A stretch of 64,000 bases of DNA from assembly GCA_005400705.1 (NCBI GenBank), contig GCA_005400705.1_4079.1; one strand, 5' to 3'. The DNA is from Escherichia coli (lineage in GTDB: Bacteria > Pseudomonadota > Gammaproteobacteria > Enterobacterales > Enterobacteriaceae). Below the pieces are notes generated by a model. The model was given only the letters and a program-made list of their open reading frames with translations, was not told where the DNA came from and made no database searches. Shown here piece after piece: positions 3,530 through 26,475 of the stretch. The position numbers and the translations under genes were made by a program. Each line of letters begins with the position of its first letter. Position 1 is the first letter of the stretch.

Positions 3530-3943
3530 ATGAAACTGTATCATGCGAGTACTGTAAAAATTGATAACTTTTATATCCCGTATGGTGGTCTTCATATGGG
3601 AGGTAAACACAGTGCTTTGGAAGCTGCATTACGCAAGCTCAGAAGTCCACTGAACGTAGTAGACGCATGTACAGTATACTTGCATACCTTAGAAGTTGAT
3701 GTTGATAACGTGCTTCTGTGTGAAGATTTAGGCAGTGATGATGAGTGGCGTTCACTTATTGAGAATTGCACTGCTCAAGGTTATGATGCTGTTCAGTACA
3801 AAAATGATTACGAGCCAGACAATGTTCCTAGTTTTATGATTTGGGATGCATCTAAAGTTCGCATCATTGAAGTTGATGCTATGCATATGGATGAAGCTGA
3901 AATGATTATCGAAGATTTTCTTGATGAATATGAAGGTGTATAA
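3530..3943 (+). CDS. hypothetical protein (137 aa)
   Basis: ORF track; GGAATGAAATATG context. Confidence 0.5.
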   Translation: MKLYHASTVKIDNFYIPYGGLHMGGKHSALEAALRKLRSPLNVVDACTVYLHTLEVDVDNVLLCEDLGSDDEWRSLIENCTAQGYDAVQYKNDYEPDNVPSFMIWDASKVRIIEVDAMHMDEAEMIIEDFLDEYEGV

Positions 3944-4461
3944 TGATTGAACCTATGACAGTACTAGCACGTACTAAATTATTATTGAGGATTGGTGAGA
4001 TATTCACTGATATTTTGTACAGTGGGATTGATATACTTGAATTAGGCATTAAGCAACCGTGGGAATTAACCAAGTTCTCTGCGTTCCATCGTTTATCCTA
4101 TAAAGGGGAAACGGTTCTTGACTTGAACCCCAAAGCCAGATTCATGGACTATGCAGCTTTATATGGAACATGTGGAGGAATAACAAATGATTTCAAAGAA
4201 ATTAAAGTTCAAACAGCGTCACATGAATTTAATGATTTATTATATCCAGAATTTAAGTTAACAGAAGAATCATTCTTCCAGTACTCATTGATTTTAAAAG
4301 ATCTTAATGATTTAGAGTACTACAAAGAGTTAGTAGATATTTTTATTAATACACGACTTTCAAAAGATATTGTGATATTCTGGTATACAGAGCATGTTAC
4401 GGAGGAATTGCTTACTGAATTTCTTCTAAATATGACAGCTATAAAGGAGAAGTTATGTTAG
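3943..4461 (+). CDS. hypothetical protein (172 aa)
   Basis: ORF track; start overlaps upstream stop. Confidence 0.5.
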   Translation: MIEPMTVLARTKLLLRIGEIFTDILYSGIDILELGIKQPWELTKFSAFHRLSYKGETVLDLNPKARFMDYAALYGTCGGITNDFKEIKVQTASHEFNDLLYPEFKLTEESFFQYSLILKDLNDLEYYKELVDIFINTRLSKDIVIFWYTEHVTEELLTEFLLNMTAIKEKLC

Positions 4462-4928
4462 ATATTTTAGGAAACATCGACACTGCAAATTATTTTATTC
4501 AAGATGCATTGTTTAATACAGTACAACAAGGTTTAGAAGTTCACCACAATGTTTATCAGGGTGATGGATATTTTGTTGATATTATCGAGACACGTAAAAA
4601 TACATTTAATGTTAACATTACGACGCTTGGAAGACAGAACATTGCACGAATTTTAGTAAGTAAAGATGAAATAGTACTGAGATACAGTGCTAAGTTTATG
4701 TTGACTTATAAGAAAAAAACTGATATGTTCAGTACTAATTTATTTGATGAGCCATTTGACCTTGAAGATATTGAAGCTACTTTCTTTACTCAAAGTACTA
4801 TGGTAAAATACACTGATGTTCAATTTTCTGCTGATGTAATGTCAGAAACATTACAAATGATCAAGGTATTATTTTATGCATTTGAGCAATTTAGAGAAGA
4901 AAGAAACAAGGTTAACAACCACAGATGA
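4455..4928 (+). CDS. hypothetical protein (157 aa)
   Basis: ORF track; AAGGAGAAG before start. Confidence 0.5.
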   Translation: MLDILGNIDTANYFIQDALFNTVQQGLEVHHNVYQGDGYFVDIIETRKNTFNVNITTLGRQNIARILVSKDEIVLRYSAKFMLTYKKKTDMFSTNLFDEPFDLEDIEATFFTQSTMVKYTDVQFSADVMSETLQMIKVLFYAFEQFREERNKVNNHR

Positions 4929-5289
4929 ACTAATAGAGGCGATCACTAAGGAGTCAAAATACCATAAAGGTATTCGTCTATACTTTATAGATACTGGTTC
5001 GATGGAAGGTACATACATTTATGGTTCACAATCGTTGTCTTATGATGCAATGCCAAATAAACATGTTAAAATCTTTTTAGGTTCAAGTAATAAAACTTTC
5101 TTGACAATTAATGATAGCAGTGTTATTATGAATTCGTTGGGTCATGATAAGGTGGAAATTGATCTAAACACGCTGGAGGATATTGATTTTTTTCAATACG
5201 AGTGTTTAGGTGTTGACTTACATGGCATTAGTAGCGATATGATAAAATCATTAATCAAATATTTCGAAGGTGTTCATAAATGTATCTAA
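4876..5289 (+). CDS. hypothetical protein; true start uncertain (53-nt overlap with upstream ORF)
   Basis: ORF track. Confidence 0.4.
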   Translation: MHLSNLEKKETRLTTTDELIEAITKESKYHKGIRLYFIDTGSMEGTYIYGSQSLSYDAMPNKHVKIFLGSSNKTFLTINDSSVIMNSLGHDKVEIDLNTLEDIDFFQYECLGVDLHGISSDMIKSLIKYFEGVHKCI

Positions 5290-5777
5290 CTAAATCAATG
5301 AAAAATTCATTTGATAAAATCAAGAGTTGTCTTGATGGAGAAAATATTACAAGTGTTACACAAACTGCTGACCAAATTCAAAGCAGTTCAAGTGATTGCA
5401 CTGTTATTTTTGGTTTACATAGTCTGCGTTTATCAATAGTAAATAATATTGACAACACTGCTATTGTAATCACACCATGCAATATTCAAAATGAGAATGG
5501 TGTATATCTTCATCACATGGGAACAGTATTTCACATTTTCAATTCAAACGAAAACATTGTTAAGGAATACAATACTCTTAATATTGATTCAGGTGAATTA
5601 TTTCAAATGAGTACTTTGTACTCATGTAATTTTACAGATACTTCATGTATTTTGCCATTTTTCTTGGAAATTATTAAGAAAATGGAAAATTTAAAACGTG
5701 AATACAATAAAGAAATGGTTCCTGAAGCTATATTAAATATTACTAATGCTATAGAGAAGTATAATGCAGTGACTTAA
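5280..5777 (+). CDS. hypothetical protein, FQMST-motif paralog family
   Basis: ORF track; motif SGELFQMSTLYSC. Confidence 0.5.
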   Translation: MYLTKSMKNSFDKIKSCLDGENITSVTQTADQIQSSSSDCTVIFGLHSLRLSIVNNIDNTAIVITPCNIQNENGVYLHHMGTVFHIFNSNENIVKEYNTLNIDSGELFQMSTLYSCNFTDTSCILPFFLEIIKKMENLKREYNKEMVPEAILNITNAIEKYNAVT

Positions 5778-5819
5778 TAAAAACGCACATGGAGTGCATT
5801 AGAAGATCAAGGATAGATC

Positions 5820-6293
5820 ATGGAGATTAAAACTGTTGAAAATGGGAAAATTGATGACATTTTAGAGTTGGACGCATTCAAAGTTCATGATATAATGTTT
5901 AATGTGAAGGACATTATTCAATGTCTATTTTTGTGTAGCAAGACAATGCATGATTTTTTTCACAACCCAAATACTAACGTTTTTATACTAACAATCAGTA
6001 CTGAAAACTCGTTTATCATGGGTATGCCTATGAGTACAAATGAACAATATATTGATTGTGTTATTCGTAATAACGATAGTATTACGCCACAATCTGAAGT
6101 ACGTAAAAAGAAAAACACCTACACAATCAAAGATGATAAAATTATGATGTGCTGTAGTAAAGGGTTTATATTAGATAATTTTATCGTAAAAGACAGTTAT
6201 CACGACTTTAAAGTATCTGAAAATCAATCCAATGTAGTTCTTTATGCGAGTGACATAGAAAGTCTAACAGTTAAAGATCCCAGTTTGGAGTAA
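5820..6293 (+). CDS. hypothetical protein (157 aa)
   Basis: ORF track. Confidence 0.5.
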   Translation: MEIKTVENGKIDDILELDAFKVHDIMFNVKDIIQCLFLCSKTMHDFFHNPNTNVFILTISTENSFIMGMPMSTNEQYIDCVIRNNDSITPQSEVRKKKNTYTIKDDKIMMCCSKGFILDNFIVKDSYHDFKVSENQSNVVLYASDIESLTVKDPSLE

Positions 6294-6295
6294 GT

Positions 6296-6427
6296 ATGGC
6301 TAAGAAAGTAAACAATTTCGTACAGAAACACATGAATGAGTTTAACAAGCCTCAGACACATGTGGATCGTAAAAAAGAAATGAAAAATGGTAAAGTAAAA
6401 CACAAGTCGAGATTTATTCTCGACTAA
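6296..6427 (+). CDS. small basic protein (43 aa, MAKKVNNFVQKH...), below ORF-track size cutoff
   Basis: ATG at 6296 immediately after upstream stop; uninterrupted frame to TAA at 6425-6427. Confidence 0.3.
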   Translation: MAKKVNNFVQKHMNEFNKPQTHVDRKKEMKNGKVKHKSRFILD

Positions 6428-10574: not shown

Positions 10575-11096
10575 ATGTCGAAGAAGGATGCTTCGAAAAA
10601 ACATTCAGTACATTTCAGTACTGGAAAAGATAACTGGACAACTCCCAAAGATTTCTTTGAAGATTTGGATGAGTTATGGGGATTTACACTTGATGCTGCT
10701 TGTGTTGATGAGACTGCATTGTGTGATAATTTTTTCACTCCAGAAGATGATTCACTATCACAGGATTGGGGAAATAATATAGTTTGGTTGAATCCACCAT
10801 ACAGTGACTTGAAAACTTGGTTATCTAAAGCAGTAGATGCATATAATAACGGGGCAACTGTAGTTATTCTTGTACCCTCAAGAACCGACACAATTGCTTT
10901 TCAGGATTATGCTGCTAAAATATGTGATTGTATTTGTTTTATTAAGGGAAGATTACGATTTGGTATACCAGAAGAACCCGATAAGAAAACAGATTCAGCA
11001 CCATTTCCTTCGTGTCTGATAGTACTGGATAAGTACTTAACCACTGCTAAAATCAATTATCTTAAATCTCTTGGGTTGGTGATGAAGAATTTATGA
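10575..11096 (+). CDS. DNA N6-adenine methyltransferase (phage Dam-like)
   Basis: AAAGGA Shine-Dalgarno; catalytic NPPY motif (VWLNPPYSD) typical of N6-adenine/N4-cytosine methyltransferases. Confidence 0.8.
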   Translation: MSKKDASKKHSVHFSTGKDNWTTPKDFFEDLDELWGFTLDAACVDETALCDNFFTPEDDSLSQDWGNNIVWLNPPYSDLKTWLSKAVDAYNNGATVVILVPSRTDTIAFQDYAAKICDCICFIKGRLRFGIPEEPDKKTDSAPFPSCLIVLDKYLTTAKINYLKSLGLVMKNL

Positions 11097-11626
11097 AAGA
11101 AACATGTGTATTAACGTTTGGTCGTATTAATCCTGTACATCGTGGACATGGTTTAGTTTTTGAAAAGGCCAAAACATTACAAGAACAGTACAATGCTGAT
11201 TTAAAAATATATCTAAGCACCAGTACTGACAATATAAAAAACCCACTCCCACCTGAACTAAAAATGTATTATACAGAGGGATTCTATCCTTCAGTGCAAG
11301 AGAACATCTACACAGAAGACAATCTGTTTGATATAATGAGAGAACTGGATGGAAAGTACTTAGATGTTCTTTTCATATGTGGTTCTGACCGTATTGATTC
11401 TTTTCAAAAAACTCTTGACATGTACAATGGTAAGTTGTATAATTTTTGTAGTATAAAAGCAATTCAGGCAGGTATTGACCGTAATGTAAGTCAATATAGC
11501 TCAACACAAATGCGTAACTTCGCAAAAAATGAAGATTTTGATAGTTTTCGTGAGTTTTTACCTGGAAATGACGAGGACTTAAAAATACAATTATTTGAAG
11601 ACGTTATAAAATACATGAGGAAATAA
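11093..11626 (+). CDS. HxGH-family nucleotidyltransferase, NMN/NaMN adenylyltransferase-like
   Basis: TFGRINPVHRGH (H/TxGH motif) and later SSTQMRN (ISSTxIR-like) typical of NadD/NMNAT-class enzymes; ATGA overlap with methyltransferase gene. Confidence 0.55.
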   Translation: MKETCVLTFGRINPVHRGHGLVFEKAKTLQEQYNADLKIYLSTSTDNIKNPLPPELKMYYTEGFYPSVQENIYTEDNLFDIMRELDGKYLDVLFICGSDRIDSFQKTLDMYNGKLYNFCSIKAIQAGIDRNVSQYSSTQMRNFAKNEDFDSFREFLPGNDEDLKIQLFEDVIKYMRK

Positions 11627-11922: not shown

Positions 11923-12202
11923 TGAAATAAATCTTACAGGATATTTTTTACAAGAATCAATGATTAAATTTAGTGATAAATTTTCAGTACTGGATGGTAT
12001 CGAAATGTGGCATGTCAAACCACTGTTCCACACTTTCAGTAAAGAGCACAAAATGTTATTGACTGAAGCCAGTAAATCAAATAACATATGTGAAATCAAA
12101 ATTGGTGTAAATGTCTATAAAGGGATGGTTATCTTTTTTGACAATAACAGCAACTACTTTTATATTGTTAAGGAGCATTACGTTGACAAATACAAATACT
12201 AA
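11903..12202 (+). CDS. hypothetical protein (99 aa)
   Basis: ORF track. Confidence 0.5.
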   Translation: METYMCDEINLTGYFLQESMIKFSDKFSVLDGIEMWHVKPLFHTFSKEHKMLLTEASKSNNICEIKIGVNVYKGMVIFFDNNSNYFYIVKEHYVDKYKY

Positions 12203-12797
12203 TACATATTTCCGTTATCTTCGCTTAGGTCTTTCCCTACGTCCGATCCGTGGAAAGTGCGATTCACTCGCTGACCTTGACTATGCATATGCATTACATC
12301 ATGAAGGTGTACAGTATGTATTGGGTGATTATGGTGAATTTGAAGAAACAAATGACAGTACTGGAATTAATGCTGGTGTAGAAAATCTTAACAACATTGC
12401 TAACAGTTCTCGCCATGACATTGTGTTACAGATTCAAAACTTTATTGAGCAGCACACAGGTAAACGTGTTTGGTGCTATGTCGGTACGGATGCACAAATG
12501 TCAATTTCATTCGGTAACGATGAAGGATATGTTGCACAGCTTATTATGGATTTTGAATCTGAAGAGAAGTTTTTAGAATTCAAAGAAAAGATTATTCAGT
12601 CACTTGTTGATATGGGTATCCCCGAAGATAAAATGCCAGAAGTCCAAAACATTGATGAATTTGTTTTGATTCCATCTGATGAGAAATATGATGCAATGTT
12701 TACTGCTCTTAATATTCCAGGAGTTATTGTGGAGTACTTTGATGATGGTGATGATAGTATCTATATCGATCTAGATGACGATGACGACGATGAATAA
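12111..12797 (+). CDS. hypothetical protein with poly-acidic C-terminus (DDGDDSIYIDLDDDDDDE); start uncertain
   Basis: ORF track; 92-nt overlap with upstream gene; no internal in-frame ATG until far downstream. Confidence 0.4.
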   Translation: MSIKGWLSFLTITATTFILLRSITLTNTNTNTYFRYLRLGLSLRPIRGKCDSLADLDYAYALHHEGVQYVLGDYGEFEETNDSTGINAGVENLNNIANSSRHDIVLQIQNFIEQHTGKRVWCYVGTDAQMSISFGNDEGYVAQLIMDFESEEKFLEFKEKIIQSLVDMGIPEDKMPEVQNIDEFVLIPSDEKYDAMFTALNIPGVIVEYFDDGDDSIYIDLDDDDDDE

Positions 12798-12803
12798 TGT
12801 ACA

Positions 12804-12831
12804 TAGCCCGACATAAGTTCGGGCTATTTTT
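12804..12831 (+). terminator. rho-independent terminator
   Basis: stem TAGCCCG...CGGGCTA followed by TTTTT. Confidence 0.75.
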
Positions 12832-12843
12832 GTAAGGGGATAT

Positions 12844-13119
12844 ATGAATTATAAAGTTCTACAATATACATACAGTGTTTTGTTTGATTTACATCACAAT
12901 GGAAGATATCTCAATACAATACGAGAAAACACATTCACTCATACTATCTGGATTAATCACTTAATAATGATACGTGAATATTTTGTTAATAGTGAGATAA
13001 TCATTCGTGGTAAAAAACAGAAGATAGAACAAGTTAATAGTTTTGGTGGTAAATTAGTACTATCATTTATAGATAGTAATACTAATGAAAGATATAGTAT
13101 AGATTTGGTGGACATATGA
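12844..13119 (+). CDS. small protein, tandem paralog array member
   Basis: AAGGGGATATATG; N-terminal YxxLxDL-type motif shared with following ORFs. Confidence 0.5.
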   Translation: MNYKVLQYTYSVLFDLHHNGRYLNTIRENTFTHTIWINHLIMIREYFVNSEIIIRGKKQKIEQVNSFGGKLVLSFIDSNTNERYSIDLVDI

Positions 13120-13382
13120 ATTATAAAGATTTCCTACTAACATACAAGATTATTCGAGATTTAGCACACGACAATGATAGCCCTAGTCTAGAAGACACAT
13201 GCACTGAAATGATTCATACAATTCGTGGTAAGATTAAAAAAAAATTCAGTACTGTTATTATTGGTGATGACCATGCAGAATTTTCTGATATAATCATTAG
13301 ACGTGATGGTAAAGTTGAGGTTCAGTACTACACTGATTTTGGATTTACCAGTATTCCGTTGGAGATATTCCCTTGGGATTAA
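13116..13382 (+). CDS. small protein, tandem paralog array member
   Basis: ATGA overlap; MNYKDFLLTYKIIRDL N-terminus similar to upstream ORF (MNYKVLQYTYSVLFDL). Confidence 0.5.
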   Translation: MNYKDFLLTYKIIRDLAHDNDSPSLEDTCTEMIHTIRGKIKKKFSTVIIGDDHAEFSDIIIRRDGKVEVQYYTDFGFTSIPLEIFPWD

Positions 13383-13684
13383 ATTTAAATGATATACAAT
13401 TCACTTATAAGATCCTATATGATTTGTATGATTTATACCTTGTTAGTAACAAAATAGGTTCACATAACTCATCCAAAGAACAACCATTTATTGATTTATA
13501 TATTGAGTACTTAGATTCAGTAGGTGAATATATAAAAAAGAATTACAGTACTTTTAACGATGGAAATGATATATTCGAGTTCTCTGGAGTTAAATCATAC
13601 AATGGGATTATCCATGTTGAATTTCTTGAAATAACCGATAGGGGATTTATCGAGATTAAAGTTGTGAAGTTGGTGAATTTATAA
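13373..13684 (+). CDS. small protein, tandem paralog array member (TTG start)
   Basis: GGAG 8 nt upstream of TTG at 13373; N-terminus LNDIQFTYKILYDLY matches next ORF. Confidence 0.45.
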   Translation: MGLNLNDIQFTYKILYDLYDLYLVSNKIGSHNSSKEQPFIDLYIEYLDSVGEYIKKNYSTFNDGNDIFEFSGVKSYNGIIHVEFLEITDRGFIEIKVVKLVNL

Positions 13685-13694
13685 GAGGTTACAT

Positions 13695-14006
13695 ATGTTA
13701 TTAAATGATATACAATTCACATACAAATTTTTGTATATCCAATACGCTACGGTTGATGCTGGAGAATATCTCTACGGTGAAATCTATCGTTCGGTATGGA
13801 TAAAGTTTTTGGATGAATTACATGAATATTACCATGATTTGTGTATAGTTCGTGATAATAAAATATACAAATTCCGCGATATTGTTAGTCATAGCGGTAA
13901 GCTACGATTGGAATTAAGTACTGATAGTGATGTTGATTGGATTGGTGTAAATTTACTGGAGTTGGAGAATGAAAAACAACTTAAAGGAAATACAAGTATT
14001 TTATAA
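13695..14006 (+). CDS. small protein, tandem paralog array member
   Basis: AGAGG before ATG; N-terminus MLLNDIQFTYKFLYIQY. Confidence 0.5.
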   Translation: MLLNDIQFTYKFLYIQYATVDAGEYLYGEIYRSVWIKFLDELHEYYHDLCIVRDNKIYKFRDIVSHSGKLRLELSTDSDVDWIGVNLLELENEKQLKGNTSIL

Positions 14007-14253
14007 ATTCTTATACTTGTCATATGTAAAAGATGAGTACTATGAAAGTGTGTATTATTTTTTATGGCAACATTACCGTACTATAGTAAGAGATTTATAT
14101 ATAGGAAAATCTATCATATCCAATGGTGAAAAATGTATATGTACTGATGTTGTTAGTTTTAATGGTTCTTTAACACTGTGTTTCAGATGCGATAATAATA
14201 GTGGGTCATTTTCATTAAACGTATATCAGTTAGAAGGAATAAATTTTGAATAA
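13969..14253 (+). CDS. small protein, tandem paralog array member
   Basis: N-terminus MKNNLKEIQVFYKFLYLSY fits family; 38-nt overlap with upstream gene. Confidence 0.45.
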   Translation: MKNNLKEIQVFYKFLYLSYVKDEYYESVYYFLWQHYRTIVRDLYIGKSIISNGEKCICTDVVSFNGSLTLCFRCDNNSGSFSLNVYQLEGINFE

Positions 14254-14446
14254 ATGTCCATATTGTAACAGTACTCAATTAGCTCGTTTCCGTTTAGATT
14301 CAGACTGGGCGACTGGTGCTGGTGATTTCTTCCCTATTAATGATGATGCGGAATACACCGAAGAACAGCACAAAGATTTTGATAAATCATGGCGACCTGA
14401 CATTGAGTGCATTTATTGCCTTAATTGTGAGCGTGTTCATGACTAA
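14246..14446 (+). CDS. small zinc-ribbon protein (CxxC...CxxC)
   Basis: CPYCNS ... CIYCLNCERV cysteine pairs. Confidence 0.5.
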   Translation: MNKCPYCNSTQLARFRLDSDWATGAGDFFPINDDAEYTEEQHKDFDKSWRPDIECIYCLNCERVHD

Positions 14447-14702
14447 AGCTGAACTAATAGTTCATACATATAAAATGATATCAAGTACTAAGTTATCATA
14501 TAGTGAAGATAATCCAGTACTGGATTATTTTGTTGAATTATTGAAAGAGCATTATATTGGTAAATCACTGATTCTTAATAATATTAATTTCACGGTAAAG
14601 GATGTAGCACCTGGAAAAAACGTACTAATAGTATGTGTTACTTCATCTGATAACCCAGTATACCCAATATCAATAATTTTTGAGATATTAGGAGATTTAT
14701 GA
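14439..14702 (+). CDS. small protein, tandem paralog array member
   Basis: ATG 14439 overlaps upstream stop; MTKAELIVHTYKMISS N-terminus fits family. Confidence 0.45.
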   Translation: MTKAELIVHTYKMISSTKLSYSEDNPVLDYFVELLKEHYIGKSLILNNINFTVKDVAPGKNVLIVCVTSSDNPVYPISIIFEILGDL

Positions 14703-14989
14703 ATATCATTTTAATGCAGAAAACATATGCTATATTGGTGAAAGATTATTCCATTACTTTCGATTCACAAGAAAGTGCTCTACATAACCTATACAAAAAC
14801 GTAACACAAGAATACAGAAATATGTTTTCTGACTTAGTAGTAGGAAGGTATTTCAGTACTAGAAAATACCCAAAACTTCAAATAGTTGATGTTTCTTTTT
14901 ATTTCAATGGTCATATTACTATTCATAGTTTAGACCAAGATTCAACAACGTACTTAAACTTTTCATTTGATGAGGTAACATTTTTATGA
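14699..14989 (+). CDS. small protein, tandem paralog array member
   Basis: ATGA overlap; MNIILMQKTYAILVKDY N-terminus. Confidence 0.5.
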   Translation: MNIILMQKTYAILVKDYSITFDSQESALHNLYKNVTQEYRNMFSDLVVGRYFSTRKYPKLQIVDVSFYFNGHITIHSLDQDSTTYLNFSFDEVTFL

Positions 14990-15148
14990 GAACAGTATTT
15001 TTTATCTGGAGTCTTTTTTCATTGGCAGTACTGACAGTATGTGGGATTTGTTTCCTTTCATCAATTAATACTTGGTATATCAATTTACTATTTCCATTTG
15101 TCTGTGTTGGTTTAGGGTTTACTTTGCATAGTGTATGTAAGGATTACA

Positions 15149-15427
15149 ATGAGAACAAATGAAGTACTTATTGCTGAAACAATGAAGATGATTTACAATA
15201 TCACGTCAGCACAGAATATGCCCTATCCAACTAAGTCTTTATTGAGGACTGTGTATCTGGGGATAGTACAGGAGTACTACAAATCCAAGCACCGAAGCAT
15301 TATTAGTGTTTATCGTGATTATGAAAGGATTCGTATTTTATTCTGGAACAAGAATCGAGTACGTTCTGAATGTGACCTAGTGGACTTTAAATTAGAGAAT
15401 CTTTATTGCTATAAACAGGGACAATAG
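15149..15427 (+). CDS. hypothetical protein (92 aa)
   Basis: AAGGA 5 nt upstream of ATG 15149 (ORF-track start at 15131 is GTG). Confidence 0.45.
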   Translation: MRTNEVLIAETMKMIYNITSAQNMPYPTKSLLRTVYLGIVQEYYKSKHRSIISVYRDYERIRILFWNKNRVRSECDLVDFKLENLYCYKQGQ

Positions 15428-15436
15428 TTTAATTCA

Positions 15437-15445
15437 TGATATAAT
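15437..15445 (+). promoter_or_regulatory. extended -10 promoter element TGATATAAT
   Basis: exact TGnTATAAT match upstream of gene at 15486. Confidence 0.4.
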
Positions 15446-15485
15446 AATGGGTAAGGAACAATAATTAACACAAGGAGTGTGTGAA

Positions 15486-16214
15486 ATGCTTGACCGTATC
15501 CGTTTCGCTACAGAGATGGCGAATGAATTAAACATGGCAAATTTCCAAATGTTAACATCAGTAATGGCTGAACATGCATGTGCTTATTCTGTAAGTGGTG
15601 TGCAGTGTGGTCAGGAGAATATGTTAGCAGATGTTTATAGTGAAGTGCAAAGTAAGCAATATAGTGTAAAGACATATAAGGATAAGTTTGTTAGTCTTTA
15701 TATGAACGAAGATATTGCCGAAGACCGTAAATTCACTGATTTTATTATTGAACGACGAGTATCAGGTGTATCTAATCCTAATGCATCAAGCGAGGAAGTT
15801 TTTGCAGAAGTACTGAAAGATATATACGAAAATGAATTAAAAAGTAAGAATCATTACAATGTACGTGAAACTAACACAGTGCTCTTGGGATATGATGAAG
15901 ACGAAGAATACTATTATTTTCGTATGACTGAAGTTCCTTTTGAATACAAATCTCCATATACAACTACAGTGAAAGAATTTACTGAAAAAAGTAAAAACTT
16001 CATGAAGCATGAAGGAAATCGTTGTAGTATAAATGGTTACGACGAAAATGGCATTCACATTTATGAATGGGTTCACCCAAATTGTCAGACATACACTCGT
16101 TGCTTGAAAAAACGTTATAATTTAGAAGAGCATGAATCATTCTATTTTAAAGTTAAGAAGCAAGGTTACACTCGCCCCGCCGATTCTGAATTGATGGGTA
16201 TGATATATTTCTAA
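15486..16214 (+). CDS. hypothetical protein (242 aa)
   Basis: AGGAG 8 nt upstream of ATG 15486 (ORF-track start 15477 is GTG). Confidence 0.5.
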   Translation: MLDRIRFATEMANELNMANFQMLTSVMAEHACAYSVSGVQCGQENMLADVYSEVQSKQYSVKTYKDKFVSLYMNEDIAEDRKFTDFIIERRVSGVSNPNASSEEVFAEVLKDIYENELKSKNHYNVRETNTVLLGYDEDEEYYYFRMTEVPFEYKSPYTTTVKEFTEKSKNFMKHEGNRCSINGYDENGIHIYEWVHPNCQTYTRCLKKRYNLEEHESFYFKVKKQGYTRPADSELMGMIYF

Positions 16215-16224
16215 GGAAACTTCT

Positions 16225-16506
16225 ATGGATTTTTATCTACACACATGGACATACGAACAATATATTACATTATATCTTGAAATTATTAACACAGAACCTA
16301 GGTGTGGTTGTTGGTTCGCAGATATCATAAAAGAGTATGCTGACGAGTTCGAGTTTGTGTATCTTGGGTCTGATATATTTGTAAAAAGTGTAGGTAAAAC
16401 CGGACGAATCACTGATATAGATTACGACACTGTTAGTGTGAATTTCTATGTTGATTTTCCTGATGCTGGCGTTGATGGTGTATATTGTCTTTATGAAATA
16501 ATTTAA
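16225..16506 (+). CDS. hypothetical small protein
   Basis: ORF track; terminator follows. Confidence 0.5.
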   Translation: MDFYLHTWTYEQYITLYLEIINTEPRCGCWFADIIKEYADEFEFVYLGSDIFVKSVGKTGRITDIDYDTVSVNFYVDFPDAGVDGVYCLYEII

Positions 16507-18126: not shown

Positions 18127-18390
18127 ATGAATATTAAAGATAGATTACAATTACTATACACTATTGAACAGGCTGCTTTTGAACTTGTTAATAAAATCTC
18201 CGAAGAACTTCCCAAAGGAACTATAGTTCGTGTAATTGAGAGGGATTATGAATCTGGAGAAATTGAAGAACTAGTACTAACCGTGAATAAAGTAACATAC
18301 TATGAATCTGAGTTGGCTATCCAATGTATATCGGAAGATGGTAAAATATACTATTATGACACTGGTGTAGATATAGAGGTAATAAAATGA
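18127..18390 (+). CDS. hypothetical small protein
   Basis: ATG 18127 directly after upstream stop; ORF-track start 18082 would overlap 44 nt. Confidence 0.45.
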   Translation: MNIKDRLQLLYTIEQAAFELVNKISEELPKGTIVRVIERDYESGEIEELVLTVNKVTYYESELAIQCISEDGKIYYYDTGVDIEVIK

Positions 18391-19529
18391 CCCTTTTACA
18401 AATATATGAAGATTTAATGCACTTATGTAATACAAACGATGCGTTTTTTTATGTGGATCATAAAAGTCCTGCTGGTGGTACGTATCGTGTATTCAGTTAT
18501 CGTCTAGCATCATACACTGATTTCATGCAACCAAATGCGTTGGAAACCCGTGGCTCTATGTGGGAAATTGATGAAGAAGGTGACATGATACGTTGTGCAG
18601 CACGTACAATGAAAAAGTTCTTCAATGCTTACGAGAATCCTGCTACAATGTTCCCTGCTAACACCACATGCGATGACATTGCGGTAGTGATGCCTAAGTT
18701 GGATGGTTCGATTATCAGTACTTATCGTGATAATGATGGTGAGATTCGTTGTAAATCACATACTGCATTGTATTCTGACCATGCGATTAACAGTACTCGA
18801 CTTATTAACGAGAACCAGAATTTGTACCAGTACATCGACGAAGCGGAACGTTTAGGTTACACAGTTAATATGGAGTATACAAGCCCAGAGTACCGAATTG
18901 TATTACCATATCAGGTAGAACAACTGTTTGTACTGAACGTTCGACATCGTGTGAGTGGTGAGTTGCTATGTGGTAAAGCACTACGTGATAAGTTTCCATG
19001 TCTTGCACAGTACAGTACTAATATGACTGGAAAAGATATTCATCACACTTTTCCGGTACGAAATACCTTCCGTGAAAGCGTGGAGGAAGTTCATAAAATG
19101 CTTGATATTGAGGGTTTTGTGTGCATCCTAAATAATGGGACAATGTGTAAAATAAAGACTGACTGGTACAGTTCATTACATCTTACAAAAGATAGTATTA
19201 TTATTGATTCTCATTTATATGAAGCCGTATTAAATGGTTCAAGTGATGATTTAAAACAATTGTTCAGTACTGATGAATATGCTATGCAAAAGATATTAAG
19301 AATGGAACAATTGGTATTTTCGTGCTATAATGCATTACAAGATGAAGTAGAAAGCTTCGTCAAGGAACACAAGCACTTGGAGCGAAAGGAATTCGCAATG
19401 AAGGTTCAGGAGTGTTTAACTAATGAACTGAATCGTCAGGGCTTGGCCTTTGCAATGTATAACAATAAGAAAGTTGATTACAAAGAGACTCTTATAAAAT
19501 ACATGAAAATTGTACTAAAGGATTTTTAG
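18387..19529 (+). CDS. rnlA: RNA ligase 1 (T4 gp63-like, tRNA repair)
   Basis: N-terminal region collinear with T4 Rnl1 as recalled (FFY...YR[IV]FSY...Y[ST]D...ALE.RG); similar length (380 aa); GAGGT before ATG. Confidence 0.9.
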   Translation: MTLLQIYEDLMHLCNTNDAFFYVDHKSPAGGTYRVFSYRLASYTDFMQPNALETRGSMWEIDEEGDMIRCAARTMKKFFNAYENPATMFPANTTCDDIAVVMPKLDGSIISTYRDNDGEIRCKSHTALYSDHAINSTRLINENQNLYQYIDEAERLGYTVNMEYTSPEYRIVLPYQVEQLFVLNVRHRVSGELLCGKALRDKFPCLAQYSTNMTGKDIHHTFPVRNTFRESVEEVHKMLDIEGFVCILNNGTMCKIKTDWYSSLHLTKDSIIIDSHLYEAVLNGSSDDLKQLFSTDEYAMQKILRMEQLVFSCYNALQDEVESFVKEHKHLERKEFAMKVQECLTNELNRQGLAFAMYNNKKVDYKETLIKYMKIVLKDF

Positions 19530-19823: not shown

Positions 19824-20054
19824 ATGAAAGTTGAAGTTCAGCATAGTATTGTTCAGGATATGTCAGTAGTTAAATTTCTTTCTCTGAAAGATTACTTCAG
19901 ATGTATCAAGTTCCTAGAAGAATCTCAATTACAGTGGACCCCATTAAAGTACAGTTCATCCAATGATACAGCTAGTATTCGTTGTGATGAATCTGTACTT
20001 GTGAAAATCTCCAAACGATTTGGAGTAGGAAAAGTTAATGAGCACAGTAAGTGA
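19824..20054 (+). CDS. hypothetical small protein
   Basis: AAGGAG before ATG. Confidence 0.5.
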   Translation: MKVEVQHSIVQDMSVVKFLSLKDYFRCIKFLEESQLQWTPLKYSSSNDTASIRCDESVLVKISKRFGVGKVNEHSK

Positions 20055-20292
20055 CCTAAAATACTACAACAAAACTGCGGATACGTTTATTACTCATTTA
20101 TATGAAGAATTTAGTCGTATCCGTAAGGAATATACAGGTAAATGTATTTTATATAGTTCTTATCATAGTGGTGGAATTGAAAGTGCTTACATTACTAAAG
20201 TGAAGTTTTCTGATGACTATCAATTACTCTTTGAATTAGATGATTGTTTCGTTATTGAAGCTTGTTTGATAGTGGATGTTCTAGATAATTGA
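20038..20292 (+). CDS. hypothetical small protein
   Basis: ORF track. Confidence 0.45.
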   Translation: MSTVSDLKYYNKTADTFITHLYEEFSRIRKEYTGKCILYSSYHSGGIESAYITKVKFSDDYQLLFELDDCFVIEACLIVDVLDN

Positions 20293-20298
20293 GGACAT

Positions 20299-20613
20299 AT
20301 GAATAAAGAACTTGCATTTGAGAGGATCGAAAAGTTAAAGTACATTGAAAAGGAACTAATAAAATCTGTCGAATCAATGGTCGAAGATTACGTTTTCGAT
20401 TTTAAGAAAACATTGATTGGATGTAAAGTTAAATGCTGGGATCATACAATCAGAGAATGGTTCAGTACTATAATTCTTGATGTTAAAGTATCGCGTACTG
20501 CTATTGGTAATTTAGTAAATGGTGAATGCTTTGTATACACTGAATACAATAACGGAACAAGAAACCTTTCAAGAGGATGGCACAAACTCGAAGATGTAGA
20601 ATTCATTGAGTAA
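20299..20613 (+). CDS. hypothetical small protein
   Basis: GAGGACATATG. Confidence 0.5.
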   Translation: MNKELAFERIEKLKYIEKELIKSVESMVEDYVFDFKKTLIGCKVKCWDHTIREWFSTIILDVKVSRTAIGNLVNGECFVYTEYNNGTRNLSRGWHKLEDVEFIE

Positions 20614-20625
20614 CAAGGAGTAATA

Positions 20626-21558
20626 ATGCCAACTATTACACTAACAGTTGGATTACCTGGGTGTGGTAAAACCACATGGGCAGTTCAAGAAATTAAAAAT
20701 GCCAAATCCAAGACTATCAACATCAACCGTGATGATATTCGTGAATCTATGGCTGGGTCACATGATGCTTACAAATTCAACGATGCTAATGAGCAGTACG
20801 TAACTAATTTACAGTTCAGTGCAGCAAATTCAGCAGCAGAGAATGGTTGGAACATCATCATATCCGATACAAACCTTAAACAACATTTCCGTAATCTCTG
20901 GAAAGTATGGGCTAAAGATAATGGTTATGATTACAAAGAAAAGAACTTCTATGATGATTTTGTACCTAATGAAGACCGTGGTGCAGATGTTCATGAATTC
21001 TTTAAGATTAAAGAGTTCGTAAAACTTTGTAAGAAATATAACCTTCAGCGTGAGCGTTCAGTACAAGATAATATCATTGACACAATGGCAGATACGTACT
21101 ATTATAGTAAGGCATTGCACATTGGTTACTATGGTAATTCACGAGAAGCTGCTGTTATCGTTGATATTGACGGTACTCTTGCTCATAAATGGGGTCGTAA
21201 TCCTTACGATGAAAGTACTGTTCTTCAGGATACACCTGATGAAGAAGTTATTTTGTCTATTATCGCTGAAGCAGTTTTTCATAAACGCAAGATTATCGTC
21301 ATGAGTGGGCGTACTGAAGGGTGTCGTACTGACACCGAACAGTGGCTTAAGAATTGGGGTGTTCCTTACGATGCATTGTTTATGCGAGGCATCGATGATA
21401 AACGTCCTGATGATGTTGTTAAATTCGACCTGTACATGAAAAATGTGGTTAATCAATACGATGTTAAAAAGGTATATGATGACCGCGAAGCCGTGACGTT
21501 CATGTGGCGTAAGCTACTTGGTTTGAAGGTATTTCAAGTAGATTTTGGACGTTTTTGA
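20626..21558 (+). CDS. pseT: polynucleotide 5'-kinase / 3'-phosphatase
   Basis: P-loop GLPGCGKTT near N-terminus, NINRDD, and HAD-type VIVDIDGTLA phosphatase motif; collinear with T4 Pnk as recalled; AAGGAG Shine-Dalgarno. Confidence 0.9.
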   Translation: MPTITLTVGLPGCGKTTWAVQEIKNAKSKTININRDDIRESMAGSHDAYKFNDANEQYVTNLQFSAANSAAENGWNIIISDTNLKQHFRNLWKVWAKDNGYDYKEKNFYDDFVPNEDRGADVHEFFKIKEFVKLCKKYNLQRERSVQDNIIDTMADTYYYSKALHIGYYGNSREAAVIVDIDGTLAHKWGRNPYDESTVLQDTPDEEVILSIIAEAVFHKRKIIVMSGRTEGCRTDTEQWLKNWGVPYDALFMRGIDDKRPDDVVKFDLYMKNVVNQYDVKKVYDDREAVTFMWRKLLGLKVFQVDFGRF

Positions 21559-21577
21559 TAAAATAAATAGTGCATAT

Positions 21578-22285
21578 ATGACAAAAAGGACTTTCTATAT
21601 GCACTATTATATTATATATAAAATAACCAATTTAATTAATAATAAAATTTATATTGGTGCTCATATGACTGATGACATAAATGATGAATATATGGGTTCA
21701 GGTGTTCTGATAAAGAAATCCATTAAGAAATATGGAATTGAAAAATTCAATAAAGAAATACTTTATATTTTTGATAATAAAGAAGAAATGTATAACAAAG
21801 AAAGAGAAATTGTTAATGAACAATTTATACAAAGAAGCGACACATATAACATCAAACGTGGTGGAGAAGGTGGCTACGGCGTAATTGATAAAGAAAATTG
21901 GAAAAAACAAATATCAACGGCACAAAAGAAGCGATATTCTTCAGGTGTTGTGGCTTGGAATAAAGGTAAATCTGTATCAGAAGAAACACGTATTCAAATG
22001 AGTCAGAGGATGAAAGGTCGTTTCCCTGGAGATAAAAATCCTATGCATGGTAAACCCTGTACATATAAAATGACAGATGAAGAAAAAACATCATGGTCCA
22101 ACAATATAAAGAAATCAAACACTGGTAAAAAGAGAACTGATGTTCAAAAACAAAAATATTCTTCGGTCGCGTCAAAACGAATTTGGTTAGTTCATAAAAG
22201 TGGTAAAGTTACTAATACACAAAATGAAAATGACCCACGTTTGAATGATCCAGATTGGCAACGTGGTCAAAAGTGGAGAGAATGA
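21578..22285 (+). CDS. GIY-YIG homing endonuclease (Seg-like) with NUMOD-type DNA-binding repeats
   Basis: YIIYKITNLINNKIYIGAH (GIY-YIG motif), WNKGK and KNPMHGK repeats; start at 21578 or 21599 (ORF-track start 21545 overlaps pseT). Confidence 0.75.
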   Translation: MTKRTFYMHYYIIYKITNLINNKIYIGAHMTDDINDEYMGSGVLIKKSIKKYGIEKFNKEILYIFDNKEEMYNKEREIVNEQFIQRSDTYNIKRGGEGGYGVIDKENWKKQISTAQKKRYSSGVVAWNKGKSVSEETRIQMSQRMKGRFPGDKNPMHGKPCTYKMTDEEKTSWSNNIKKSNTGKKRTDVQKQKYSSVASKRIWLVHKSGKVTNTQNENDPRLNDPDWQRGQKWRE

Positions 22286-22310
22286 ATATTTTTATGGATT
22301 ATAATTTTTG

Positions 22311-22340
22311 AGGGATCATAATTTGGTCCCTTTTTCTTTT
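22311..22340 (+). terminator. probable rho-independent terminator
   Basis: AGGGA...TCCCT stem followed by TTTTTCTTTT. Confidence 0.5.
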
Positions 22341-22529
22341 AAGGTACATTATAGTGAATGTAACAACACAGATGTTATTGCGAAAAGACTACTTAGAAAA
22401 TATAGAAAGATTCTATAGAATGTCTTTGTATGAAAATAAACATAAAAATTATAATTTTGATAAACTACTAAATTCCAGTACTGATGATTATCTATTTTCA
22501 TCAATGTTTTATGTGAGAGGTTTATTATA

Positions 22530-22790
22530 ATGGATAAATTTCACACAGATATAACACAGATAGGTAATCTTATCAATAGTCTAATTACTGATTTAGAAGA
22601 AAAGTATTTAGGTCGAAATGTATACGTAGAAATGTATGAAACATATGGTGTTATTGATATGATTTATTACAGTGCATTGAAGTGTGAAATACGTTTAACA
22701 GTATGTTTGTTTGAAAAAAATACATTCAACAGAAGTACTGCAATTCGCCAAGTTGGAGTTGATGATATAGAATTATACGAGGAACAATGA
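22530..22790 (+). CDS. small protein, resembles tandem-array family
   Basis: ORF track. Confidence 0.5.
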   Translation: MDKFHTDITQIGNLINSLITDLEEKYLGRNVYVEMYETYGVIDMIYYSALKCEIRLTVCLFEKNTFNRSTAIRQVGVDDIELYEEQ

Positions 22791-23041
22791 TGTTTGAGCA
22801 GGACTTAGAGATATTCAAAAGTCATATTGATTACTTGACTATATTAGAAAATGATTTAACTACAAAGTACAAAGGTATTCGTGTTCTGTGCTGGTATGAT
22901 GATTGGGATTATAAACGTGAACTCACTATTGATCGAATTTATTTCAGTGACGGTGTACTAAATGTACATGGTGTAAATGATTTTGGTCATTCATATACAT
23001 ATTCTAATAATGCTAAATTTAAAAGGATCTGCAATGAATGA
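22787..23041 (+). CDS. small protein, resembles tandem-array family
   Basis: ATGA overlap. Confidence 0.5.
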   Translation: MMFEQDLEIFKSHIDYLTILENDLTTKYKGIRVLCWYDDWDYKRELTIDRIYFSDGVLNVHGVNDFGHSYTYSNNAKFKRICNE

Positions 23042-23336
23042 ATATTATCATAATTTATTCGATTACATAAAACTAATAGATGATCTTTCTTTTGAATTTC
23101 TCAGTACTGAAAAAGTTCTTGAACCTCTCTATTATGATTGTATTAGTTCACTATCTTTAGATGAAAAAGAGATATTATCAAATAATTTACCGTCAACCGT
23201 CTGTGTAATCAATGGTTCCAAGGCTGTGGTGTCTGAGGTTAATTTTCATAAATCACTTAATACAATTGTTTACAAGTTCGATAACACTTGGATCAATCAT
23301 GTAACCAGTAATATTAAATCTGTGAGATTTTTATGA
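23034..23336 (+). CDS. hypothetical small protein
   Basis: AAAAGGA 6 nt upstream of ATG 23034; ORF-track start 22977 would overlap 65 nt. Confidence 0.5.
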   Translation: MNEYYHNLFDYIKLIDDLSFEFLSTEKVLEPLYYDCISSLSLDEKEILSNNLPSTVCVINGSKAVVSEVNFHKSLNTIVYKFDNTWINHVTSNIKSVRFL

Positions 23337-23629
23337 ATATAAAAAAATTATTTGAACAAGTAAATTTATTGTACTGGTGTTCAGACGGTTCAGATAAGGA
23401 ATATAGTGAAGTTTATTTAGAACTGTTTAGAACTGAAATTCATTATATTCGAAGATACTTAATTGATAACAAAACTAAAGTACAAGTAAGATACCATAAC
23501 GGTACTTTAAAGGATGGTATAATTATTGGATTGATAGTTGCACGATGGTCTAGTAATATTAAAGTTGCAGTAAGATTAATGACTGATGATGGTGTCTACA
23601 CAATAGAAGCTAGTGAGATTATATATTAA
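23333..23629 (+). CDS. hypothetical small protein
   Basis: ATGA overlap. Confidence 0.5.
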   Translation: MNIKKLFEQVNLLYWCSDGSDKEYSEVYLELFRTEIHYIRRYLIDNKTKVQVRYHNGTLKDGIIIGLIVARWSSNIKVAVRLMTDDGVYTIEASEIIY

Positions 23630-23935
23630 ATGGATATACAAACATTCAATAAGCTAAAGTACTATGATAATGGTTTTGCATTAATAATTAACGAACTTGA
23701 TGGGATACCATACGAATATCATAATCAATTAATGAAGATAGTAAAATGTATATGTGAAGAATTAAAAAGTATGTTTAAAAATGAATATGTTTATGATTTA
23801 GGTAATAGTAGCAAAAAACTATACATAAAGAAATTCTGGGGAACGCATTGTGGTTTAATGGTCGATTTAGGTTTAAGTTTAGACGATAATTCTGAATCAT
23901 GTTCATTATATATAGATGAAATGCGAATATCATGA
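23630..23935 (+). CDS. hypothetical small protein
   Basis: ORF track. Confidence 0.5.
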   Translation: MDIQTFNKLKYYDNGFALIINELDGIPYEYHNQLMKIVKCICEELKSMFKNEYVYDLGNSSKKLYIKKFWGTHCGLMVDLGLSLDDNSESCSLYIDEMRIS

Positions 23936-23951
23936 GACGTATCAGAATTCG

Positions 23952-23960
23952 GTGATATAA
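23952..23960 (+). promoter_or_regulatory. extended -10 promoter element TGATATAAT
   Basis: exact TGnTATAAT match upstream of gene at 23993. Confidence 0.4.
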
Positions 23961-23992
23961 TTTGATTACATCACCAATGTGGAGAAGTTGAA

Positions 23993-24319
23993 GTGAATGG
24001 TTCGTTTTTAACAATTTTAGAAAAGACATCCGAGATGCTTTCTAGTTCGTTAATGCACATTTTCAGTACTAATAATTTATACAATACCCAGGTGTTAGAT
24101 TCAATTAGTAATAACTATGTGGTAAGTATATCTGATGAAATATGTCCATTTAATGCGTATACGAATTATAGTGTAGAAGAGTTTCATATATCCGAAATTC
24201 GATGTGGTTTTGGTGCTTGGTTAGTTCTAAATGAACGTTCAGGGACGTCTTTATACATCGAAGAAATTGATAAATTTATATACAAAGGAGTAGAATATGT
24301 TAACCCCAATCATTCTTAG
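23993..24319 (+). CDS. hypothetical protein (GTG start)
   Basis: GGAG 8 nt upstream of GTG 23993. Confidence 0.45.
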   Translation: MNGSFLTILEKTSEMLSSSLMHIFSTNNLYNTQVLDSISNNYVVSISDEICPFNAYTNYSVEEFHISEIRCGFGAWLVLNERSGTSLYIEEIDKFIYKGVEYVNPNHS

Positions 24320-24926
24320 CAGTGCATATGTAATCGGTATTATTATTTCTGGTATGCTTGCATATAACTATAACAGAAGTGTTCTAGGTTATGTAGTACT
24401 TGGTACAGTACTAAGTCCAGTGATTGCTATTGGTCTTCTTGTTATGCTAGGTGAGAAAAATACAAACTTCTTTATTACTAAAGAACTTGATAAAATCACC
24501 CCAGCACCAGAAACAGTTATTCCAGAAGTTAAAGAAGAAGTTAAAGAAGTTGAAGTGCAAATGCAAGTTAAAGTGTATAATACACTTGAAGAAACTGACC
24601 CTAAAGTTGTAGTGAATGTAGTTCCAGTCGTTGAAGATGTGAAACCAAAAGCTCCTAAAGCACAGAAAAATACTAAAACTGCAAAGAAAGCTCGTTACAC
24701 TAAAGGTAAGAACAAAGGTAAATCTAAGGATGAACCACAACTAGGTGTTCATGACCATACTGCACAAATTGCAACGGCAGCGACCGCAGCAGCAATCGTA
24801 ACATCACCAATCTACAACAATGATGATTACAGTGATTATAGCCGTCACAGCAGTTCTTCCTCTGATTCTTGTTCCTATGATAGCTCTAGTTCTGATTCAA
24901 GTTCATCTTCTGGAAGTTGTGATTAA
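24297..24926 (+). CDS. membrane protein with two N-terminal TM helices and Ser/Asp/Cys-rich C-terminal tail
   Basis: AAAGGAG Shine-Dalgarno; hydrophobic N-terminus; C-terminal SSSSSDSCSYDSSSSDSSSSSGSCD. Confidence 0.5.
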   Translation: MLTPIILSSAYVIGIIISGMLAYNYNRSVLGYVVLGTVLSPVIAIGLLVMLGEKNTNFFITKELDKITPAPETVIPEVKEEVKEVEVQMQVKVYNTLEETDPKVVVNVVPVVEDVKPKAPKAQKNTKTAKKARYTKGKNKGKSKDEPQLGVHDHTAQIATAATAAAIVTSPIYNNDDYSDYSRHSSSSSDSCSYDSSSSDSSSSSGSCD

Positions 24927-25255
24927 TGTCAATGAAACCACTAATTCAACATAATATTTTTTATAGGTCATTATTCAAAATTCAAGATGATTTTTATCAG
25001 ACGTTGAGTAATGATCTTATAGGTAAAACTGTACGATATTCGGAACAATACATCAAACGTATGACAAGTCAGTATATTGACCCTGAATACGAATACGACA
25101 TTGAACACATTAATCCCAATACTAGAATGAAAATCATTGAGATATTTAAGAATGGGAGAACTATAGGTGCTGAAATTGAGTACTTGAATTGTGATTGTTA
25201 CATAGATACAGAGTTGAGTTTGGATTATCTTGTTTTAGTGGATGATGAGGAATAA
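24926..25255 (+). CDS. hypothetical small protein
   Basis: ORF track. Confidence 0.5.
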   Translation: MSMKPLIQHNIFYRSLFKIQDDFYQTLSNDLIGKTVRYSEQYIKRMTSQYIDPEYEYDIEHINPNTRMKIIEIFKNGRTIGAEIEYLNCDCYIDTELSLDYLVLVDDEE

Positions 25256-25257
25256 TT

Positions 25258-25724: not shown

Positions 25725-25726
25725 TA

Positions 25727-26470: not shown

Positions 26471-26475
26471 TAATT

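Follow-up and report, generated by a model that had tools for sequence, protein, structure and literature searches.

A tandem array of small, fast-evolving paralogous genes with a common predicted fold in an Asteriusvirus jumbo coliphage

Positions 12844-14989 of a 64,000-nucleotide stretch of DNA (the window; contig GCA_005400705.1_4079.1 of assembly GCA_005400705.1, deposited as Escherichia coli) encode a tandem array of seven small proteins, six of them paralogs and one a probable paralog, which are labelled G1 to G7 in window order. A zinc-ribbon gene lies between G5 and G6. The seven-copy family, the operon that contains it and the fold that its members share are, taken together, very probably correctly described. 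A preliminary description of the window had counted about eight tandem paralogs; seven are retained, and the eighth open reading frame (ORF), at 14246-14446, is the zinc ribbon, which has no similarity to the array paralogs. In a megablast search with positions 12000-16500, 36 phage records were matched, the top ones being Escherichia phages vB_EcoM_E9.1, CRJP21, phAPEC6 and 121Q at 99.1-99.4% identity, so that the source of the window is identified by its sequence as an Asteriusvirus jumbo coliphage (Rak2-like; 121Q/PBECO4 group). The G+C content is approximately 32%, and the + strand carries nearly all genes. The array region corresponds to genes 422-431 of phage 121Q, every one of which is labelled 'hypothetical protein'.

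Several of the paralogs match one another directly in sequence. In an all-against-all blastp comparison of the 115 non-nested + strand ORFs of the window, G1 matched G5 (E 2e-5), G2 matched G3 (3e-4), and G4 matched both G3 (3e-6) and G5 (2.5e-6), and every other pair of small ORFs gave E values of 0.004 or higher. A hidden Markov model (HMM) built from G1-G5 finds G7 at E 2e-5 and the C-terminal 87 residues of ORF 14316-14702, which are G6, at 0.003. When each paralog was dropped in turn together with its orthologs, the leave-one-out HMM gave 27 bits for G1, 13 for G2, 40 for G3, 47 for G4, 51 for G5 and 15 for G7; noise, taken as the best of 2300 composition-matched shuffled ORFs, topped out at 10-14 bits (9.9 in the run for G2). 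G6 fails this test, with 5.7 bits, below the shuffle maxima. It is aligned collinearly with a G6-free family profile by hhalign (71%, E 3.7e-5), and it is recruited at the second iteration of a profile search seeded without G6 sequences. On these comparisons of sequence, G1-G5 and G7 are considered true paralogs and G6 a probable member of the family. The paralog alignments are collinear along their full length, and the duplications of the array must be old because the copies are just 25-30% identical to one another.

The alternative that the resemblance is mere compositional bias of AT-rich short ORFs, with no real family behind it, takes some support from the 32% G+C of the genome, from motifs that are heavy in Y, K, N and I, and from the behaviour of G6 in the leave-one-out test, but is barely credible: the left-out members score 13-51 bits where shuffles of the same composition reach 10-14, the alignments are collinear over the full length, and independent structure models superpose. 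Compositional chance is excluded for six members. An all-against-all alignment, suggested in the preliminary description as a check, therefore yields similarity in excess of compositional bias, both by blastp and by leave-one-out HMM against shuffles, and the motifs quoted there are all present: MNYK in G1 and G2, LNDIQFTYK[IF]LY in G3 and G4, and EIQVFYKFLY in G5.

The tandem paralogy of the array is unrecorded in PHROGs, where no fold, function or name is attached to it. Six copies (all but G5) are spread over phrog_21004, phrog_32291, phrog_35943, phrog_33961 and phrog_28826, all of 'unknown function'. Independently of this analysis, phrog_21004 groups G3 with G4, and G1 and G5 match it weakly. 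G1, G2 and G6 match their own PHROGs over the full length, and G7 does so over residues 14-96, its PHROG profile being N-terminally truncated (83 residues); G5 has no strong PHROG, only weak matches to phrog_21004 and phrog_32291.

An AlphaFold2 (AF2) model of G5, built from a 25-sequence alignment of the family, has a mean local confidence (pLDDT) of 88 and a predicted template modelling score (pTM) of 0.75, with elements in the order H-H-E-E-E-E: helices at residues 5-22 and 28-44, and strands at 48-51, 54-64, 67-74 and 80-84. In the predicted fold, a hairpin of two helices packs against a four-stranded SH3/Tudor-like barrel. Independent models in BFVD of a G1-type protein (E 1e-5) and of the G7 of phage slurp01 (E 2e-4, TM 0.76) align to the G5 model with TM scores of 0.72-0.76, and the common fold that the preliminary description had proposed to look for by structure prediction is confirmed by this agreement among the models. 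The modelled barrel is small, bent and antiparallel and superposes on known members of the SH3-like small beta-barrel class, to which it belongs. For G6, AF2 with an alignment of its own orthologs, which is too shallow, gave a pLDDT of 55 and the same order of elements, and is usable for that order alone. Conservation throughout the family is confined to hydrophobic core positions, the glycines of the turns and, in helix 1, a Q-x-T-Y patch; the other positions are free to vary. All of the proteins are predicted to be soluble; G1 is neutral and the other six are acidic, with isoelectric points (pI) of 4.7-5.8 and net charges of -1 to -6.

No paralog has a Pfam match at E of 1 or below, the family profile has no match among the sequences of the PDB, and a Foldseek search of the PDB gave a best E value of 0.07. 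Small phage proteins with generic SH3-like barrels, DUF4222 and DUF1653 among them, are similar in size and barrel topology and have no known role either (Foldseek TM 0.6-0.67 over approximately 50 residues), but with E values of just 0.02-0.05, and they have no helical hairpin and do not occur as arrays of paralogs.

The genes of the array are all on the + strand and form part of a tightly packed operon, 12844-15427, in which translation is probably coupled. Its upstream boundary is a terminator-like hairpin with a T-run (12803-12837, + strand; a GC-rich 9-bp stem with 5 GC pairs and a TTTTTG tail), located directly 3' of the gene for an acidic homolog of 121Q gp421 and 7 nucleotides upstream of the Shine-Dalgarno sequence of G1; others have likewise annotated a terminator here, in phages G17 and UE-S1. 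G1 (12844-13119; 91 residues, gp422) is supported by blastp to G5, the leave-one-out HMM and phrog_32291. G2 (13116-13382; 88 residues, gp423), supported by blastp to G3 and the leave-one-out HMM, has an ATG that overlaps the stop codon of G1 (ATGA). G3 (13373-13684; 103 residues, gp424) begins at a TTG codon overlapping the end of G2, with a start residue identical in its orthologs, and like G4 (13695-14006; 103 residues, gp425) it is supported by blastp, HMM and phrog_21004. The C-terminal tail of G4 overlaps by 38 nucleotides the start of G5 (13969-14253; 94 residues), the modelled member, which has the highest leave-one-out HMM score. The zinc-ribbon protein (14246-14446; 66 residues, gp427, CxxC...CxxC, phrog_22354) is a non-member inside the operon. 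It is followed by the probable member G6 (14439-14702; 87 residues, gp428), supported by hhalign and the iterative profile search, and by G7 (14699-14989; 96 residues), supported by the five-member HMM, the leave-one-out HMM and the BFVD model of its slurp01 ortholog.

Two further genes complete the operon. One (14986-15162, + strand) encodes gp430, a 58-residue membrane protein whose translation contains two hydrophobic helices (grand average of hydropathy 0.97) and which is unrelated to the array family. The other and final gene (15149-15427, + strand) encodes gp431, a basic protein of 92 residues that scores at noise level with the family profiles (6.8-10.9 bits, at or below shuffle maxima of 10.0-14.3; hhalign 3%). 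The consecutive small ORFs with overlapping stops and starts that the preliminary description noticed at 12844-14989 are thus borne out, the paralogs measuring 87-103 residues: eight junctions out of ten in 12844-15427 are overlaps of 4-38 nucleotides, and a Shine-Dalgarno-like sequence (AAGGGG, GGAG, AAGAGG, GAAGGA, GAGG or AAGGA) precedes seven of the ten starts. The next gene, gp432, is preceded by a 49-nucleotide gap that holds a promoter-like site, and the next terminator-like site on the + strand is at 16513, so that hairpins at 12803 and 16513 are the limits of the region.

Some existing gene models of the array are incomplete. In 121Q, G5 is annotated as gp426 (78 residues) and G7 as gp429 (83 residues), with late starts that drop the family motif; the long N-termini are considered real because the family alignments cover them, and the orthologs of G5 retain the long N-terminus with its motif. 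The annotation of phAPEC6 has neither G5 nor the zinc ribbon. Conversely, the 128-residue ORF 14316-14702 reported by the ORF finder is really a gene of 87 codons, for which the internal ATG at 14439 is the true start of G6.

The family is lineage-restricted, since an exhaustive profile search of 1.84 billion representative sequences found only about 18 small relatives; two PKD/Ig-repeat proteins from the same search were discarded as spurious. The seven positions are all intact in 32 of 36 isolates, and likewise in the metagenomic contig L014. The variation in copy number that the preliminary description thought comparative genomics might reveal was not found: the number is steady at seven across Asteriusvirus isolates, and it is the alleles occupying the positions that vary. 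Phage fEgEco12 has the same seven positions, where G1 to G7 are 59, 76, 72, 99, 100, 48 and 56% identical to those of the window and the flanking genes are 87-92% identical; the value for G6 falls from 48% to 29% once the gene is trimmed to its true start. In contig L014, with flanks 75-88% identical, positions 1-3 are occupied by three G1-like genes (36-39%), which are followed by a G4-like gene (38%) and by G5, G6 and G7 at 97, 88 and 94%. In another contig, L002, where the flanks are 69-80% identical, a single member and the zinc ribbon are accompanied by six small ORFs, of which five can be recognised as members by profile only. Among the 36 isolates the alleles are mosaic, with identity bands that differ from position to position: in 33 of 35 records the identity of G5 is at least 95%, the records for G1 divide into 22 at 95% or above and 13 below 60%, G7 identities fall in all bands, and G6 is found by tblastn in 24 records only.

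Pseudogenes were seen only in the deletion-ridden records of Salmonella phages SD-1_S14 and SD-6_S16 (310-326 kb), which have deletions and fragmented genes throughout, including an ORF in which G2 and G3 are fused (P0036). These records were rejected as instances of copy-number variation, because the damage extends throughout them and the G2/G3 fusion is not specific to the array. The fusion may be an artefact of assembly or passage, and the deletions could represent either real genome reduction on Salmonella or poor assemblies.

Ratios of nonsynonymous to synonymous substitution (dN/dS), calculated by the method of Nei and Gojobori against fEgEco12 and L014, are 0.19-0.44 for the diverged array genes (dS 0.8-1.9), compared with 0.04-0.12 for flanking genes (dS approximately 1.4). 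At such dS values, these ratios indicate that the array genes are truly coding, and the members evolve at the protein level three to five times as fast as the flanking genes. The dS falls to approximately 0-0.2 across the block of G4, G5 and the zinc ribbon relative to fEgEco12, where the flanks are at approximately 1.4, and to 0.02-0.14 across G5-G7 relative to L014; these blocks of near-zero dS must therefore have been exchanged recently by recombination.

The zinc ribbon is the best conserved gene of the array, being 95-99% identical across coliphages and approximately 71% identical in Klebsiella phages RaK2, K64-1 and Muenster, with a dN/dS of 0.06-0.11. Its homolog in K64-1 is named 'transcription factor IIS-like' in RefSeq. 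Assignment to the Lar restriction-alleviation family (PF14354) was considered and rejected (E 0.19; 12.4 bits against a gathering cut-off of 28.6). The gene could be a marker or a regulator of the slot that the array occupies, and it serves here as a marker by which the equivalent slot can be located in Klebsiella phages. In RaK2, the order is ORF452, ORF453, the zinc ribbon (71%), ORF455, ORF456, the 205-residue ORF457 (5733-6350 of the RaK2 sequence as extracted; no Pfam match) and a small membrane protein, ORF458, which is a gp430-type protein that precedes the homolog of gp432. Against the family, ORF456 scores 17 bits, ORF453 13 bits (hhalign 74%) and ORF455 10 bits, and by these scores all three look like degenerate members. 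GAP32-like relatives (nine sequences, at about 3900-5960) have, between the homologs of gp421 and gp432, an unrelated HD-domain protein (262 residues in the sequence designated L004) and a protein of about 350-370 residues. This slot has long been a site at which genes are replaced.

The preliminary description also reported similar small ORFs at 22530-23629, 25473 and 26476, but these are not demonstrably related to the family: their family-profile scores are at the level of shuffled sequences, and each falls in a PHROG of its own with no cross-matches. In full-family and iterative searches they and the ORFs for gp431, gp433 and gp434 score 10 bits or less (shuffles 9.5-12), and in leave-one-out runs they reach 12.0 bits at most, where the shuffle maxima are 10-14. 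By hhalign, the family aligns with the ORFs of 22530-26745 at 12% or less, except for 23333-23629, which reaches 65% over the N-terminal helices only. Attempts by HMM, by iterative search and by hhalign to widen the family so as to take in gp431, gp433, gp434 and the 22530-26745 ORFs gave noise or probabilities below 20%, with the exception of 23333-23629, and the extension was rejected. A loose motif, [YFL][ILKV]G..[IVFLY], that was defined after the sequences had been viewed is present in 15 of 47 small ORFs compared with 4.4 +/- 2 in shuffles. Within 20038-26745 there is a weak hhalign network centred on 25473-25724, which links the ORFs at 22787, 20299, 20038, 22530 and 24926 at 13-33%, always collinearly; these ORFs share a helix-'Y[IL]Gxx[VI]'-strand motif. 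The network may represent another remote family, or proteins akin to those of the array in fold. Both the loose motif and the network are regarded as leads rather than as evidence.

With respect to function, it is tentatively proposed, at somewhat less than even probability, that the paralogs make up a set of stoichiometric binding proteins whose targets are host factors. They would be non-enzymatic and made inside the infected cell, and each paralog or allele would show a different surface on the common scaffold, thereby binding a different or differently variable host protein, with host takeover or counter-defence as the likely role. The seven positions are retained while each protein evolves fast, and co-circulating phages swap whole blocks by recombination. 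Such a role is suggested by the conserved scaffold with its variable positions, the mosaic turnover, the non-virion location of the proteins and the accessory character of the neighbourhood, with Dam on one side and the T4-type Rnl1 and PNKP on the other. The explanation as a whole, in which the family, operon and fold are combined with a binding function, is given about an even chance of being right. The host-interaction or anti-defence role put forward in the preliminary description fits the evidence of fast, mosaic and non-virion proteins, although no homology to known proteins of this kind was found in the Pfam, PHROGs and PDB searches.

Several observations weigh against a host-binding role. 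Searches of Pfam, of PDB sequences and, with Foldseek, of PDB structures linked the paralogs to no protein of known function, whether by homology or by a significant structural match; Pfam and PHROGs assign no function to any gene of the operon, and no helix-turn-helix (HTH) aca gene is adjacent. Overall dN/dS is below 1, which does not establish positive selection, and relaxed constraint would yield the same numbers. G5 is almost invariant across isolates, unlike what would be expected of an arms race at that position. The neighbourhood is weak evidence, as 83% of the genes in the genome lack an assigned function (PMC7247149). Literature searches for Asteriusvirus transcriptomes and for anti-defence screens with these phages returned nothing relevant, and found no expression or interaction data.

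The paralogs might instead be dispensable filler: a small domain duplicated in tandem long ago, whose copies drift under relaxed constraint within a hyperplastic part of a jumbo genome packaged by the head-full mechanism, with no separate function for each. The raised dN/dS (yet below 1), the unrelated genes (HD-domain protein and ~360-residue protein) that fill the slot in GAP32-like relatives, the equally divergent small ORFs gp420, gp433 and gp434 nearby, and the proposal that jumbo genomes grow by tandem duplication (Hua et al., PMC5646251) are all compatible with this, but it is rather unlikely given that the seven positions are intact in nearly all isolates and in L014, that pseudogenes are confined to the Salmonella SD records, that purifying selection remains (dN/dS 0.2-0.4), and that the recently spread blocks of dS near zero suggest selected alleles. 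Modulation of RNA polymerase, in which the barrel would act as a Tudor-like RNA polymerase-interacting domain (of the kind found in CarD, Mfd and UvrD/PcrA), docking on the lobe of the host beta subunit and redirecting or protecting transcription during takeover, is considered unlikely. The domains of CarD/CdnL/TRCF-RID and the UvrD/PcrA C-terminus have no sequence relationship to the paralogs in Pfam or the PDB (the CarD_CdnL_TRCF family gave no match at E of 1 or below for any paralog), and they lack the N-terminal two-helix hairpin that the phage proteins have in addition to four strands.

Binding of nucleic acids in the manner of Sm- or KOW-like barrels, as RNA chaperones or regulators of phage mRNA, is a still weaker possibility: SH3-like barrels of EF-P/eIF5A domain I, KOW and WYL proteins do bind RNA or ligands, and the array adjoins RNA-repair genes, but six of the seven paralogs are acidic and G1 is neutral, a conserved basic patch is absent, and there is no Pfam match to KOW, Sm or WYL. 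Packaging of the paralogs in virions, from which they would be injected along with the DNA as the internal proteins of T4 are, is very improbable; the paralogs are small, diversified and phage-specific, as such proteins might be, but their phAPEC6 orthologs (gp384c-gp389c) are absent from the 62 virion proteins of Table 1 of PMC7247149, although small proteins can evade mass spectrometry, and the paralogs have no cleavage or targeting motif and are far from the structural modules.

The proposal of a panel of host-binding proteins can be extended in a way that is possible but doubtful: the paralogs and the zinc ribbon may constitute a cassette for anti-defence or host takeover that has gone unrecognised in Rak2-like jumbo phages, and the family may be the core of a far larger superfamily, undetectable by sequence, that includes many of the ~90-residue ORFs of the region. 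One scaffold would then have been diversified into inhibitors of different or polymorphic E. coli factors, with alleles traded as hosts change. Phage accessory and anti-defence genes are known to form clusters, such as anti-CRISPR loci with their conserved aca gene and the hyperplastic regions of T4. By analogy, and as a lead from general knowledge, the array is like these in having small fast-evolving genes in an operon, mosaic exchange, and one conserved small gene embedded among them, here the zinc ribbon. It differs from the anti-CRISPR arrangement in that the conserved gene encodes a zinc ribbon and not an HTH regulator, and no paralog matches a known anti-defence protein in Pfam or PHROGs.

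Tandem arrays have been described before in large phages, including a row of over 30 closely similar genes in tandem in 121Q and phage G (Hua et al. 2017, PMC5646251), an array of related genes in phAPEC6 (PMC7247149), and 22 paralogous ORFs in phage CBB (PMC5259590). The phenomenon, tandem duplication in a Rak2-like genome, is the same here, and 121Q is of the same phage group, but the array noted by Hua et al. in 121Q is a different one that consists of very similar genes, whereas the copies of approximately 90 residues described here are 25-30% identical. The seven-copy family was found described in none of the literature searched on these phages.

Upstream of the array are a Dam methylase (10575-11096) and a 177-residue protein (11093-11626) that is annotated as 'ribonucleotide reductase A' in 121Q and fEgEco12 and as a putative cytidylyltransferase in RaK2. 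The latter has no Pfam match, and a resemblance to the HxGH motif of nucleotidyltransferases is seen at its N-terminus (TFGRINPVHRGHG); the label 'ribonucleotide reductase A' is probably a misannotation. The gp421 homolog (12186-12797), which all relatives have immediately upstream of the slot (as ORF451 in RaK2), has a pI of 4.1, a net charge of approximately -30, a poly-Asp C-terminal tail and no Pfam match, an acidity that is reminiscent of DNA-mimic proteins. Downstream are a T4-type RNA ligase 1 (Rnl1, 18387-19529), PNKP (20626-21558), a metallophosphatase and a DNA ligase. The strict promoter pattern TTGACA-N16-18-TAnnnT occurs at 15 sites compared with 7.1 expected, 13 of them on the coding (+) strand, and two TTGACA-type sites are located 0.7 and 1.4 kb upstream of the array. 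This excess hints at early transcription of the region by the host RNA polymerase. Sigma-70-like promoters overall show no excess in 9-20 kb (62, with 63 expected), so that the 'early region' of the preliminary description has the mild excess of strict sites as its sole basis. Perfect or near-perfect sigma-70 consensus promoters are present on the coding strand at 11415-11443, 12138-12166 and 63448-63476.

Elsewhere in the window, a 75-residue protein (26756-26983) has a DnaJ-type CxxCxGxG zinc-finger motif and is labelled 'chaperone protein' in fEgEco12; its best Pfam match is Anti-TRAP (E 3e-7), slightly below the cut-off. Two proteins of about 900 residues (50608-53304 and 53830-56649) align from end to end at 27.5% identity (E 1e-61), and between them is a 195-residue ORF (53316-53903) that matches their ends. 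Three consecutive ORFs of about 170-190 residues follow at 56717-58317, the first two of which match each other at E 4e-14. None of these six ORFs from 50608 onward has a Pfam match.

In these jumbo coliphages, themselves candidates for use in phage therapy, no role is known for over 80% of the genes. The family described here is new and lineage-restricted, and it changes no concept, tandem arrays of fast-evolving small accessory genes being already familiar in large phages. It unites seven 'hypothetical proteins' under one confident fold model, and two truncated gene models have been corrected. The slot between the gp421 and gp432 homologs is shown to be a recombination hot spot at which alleles turn over position by position, and the array that occupies it in Asteriusvirus is a compact set of candidates for factors of host interaction or counter-defence.

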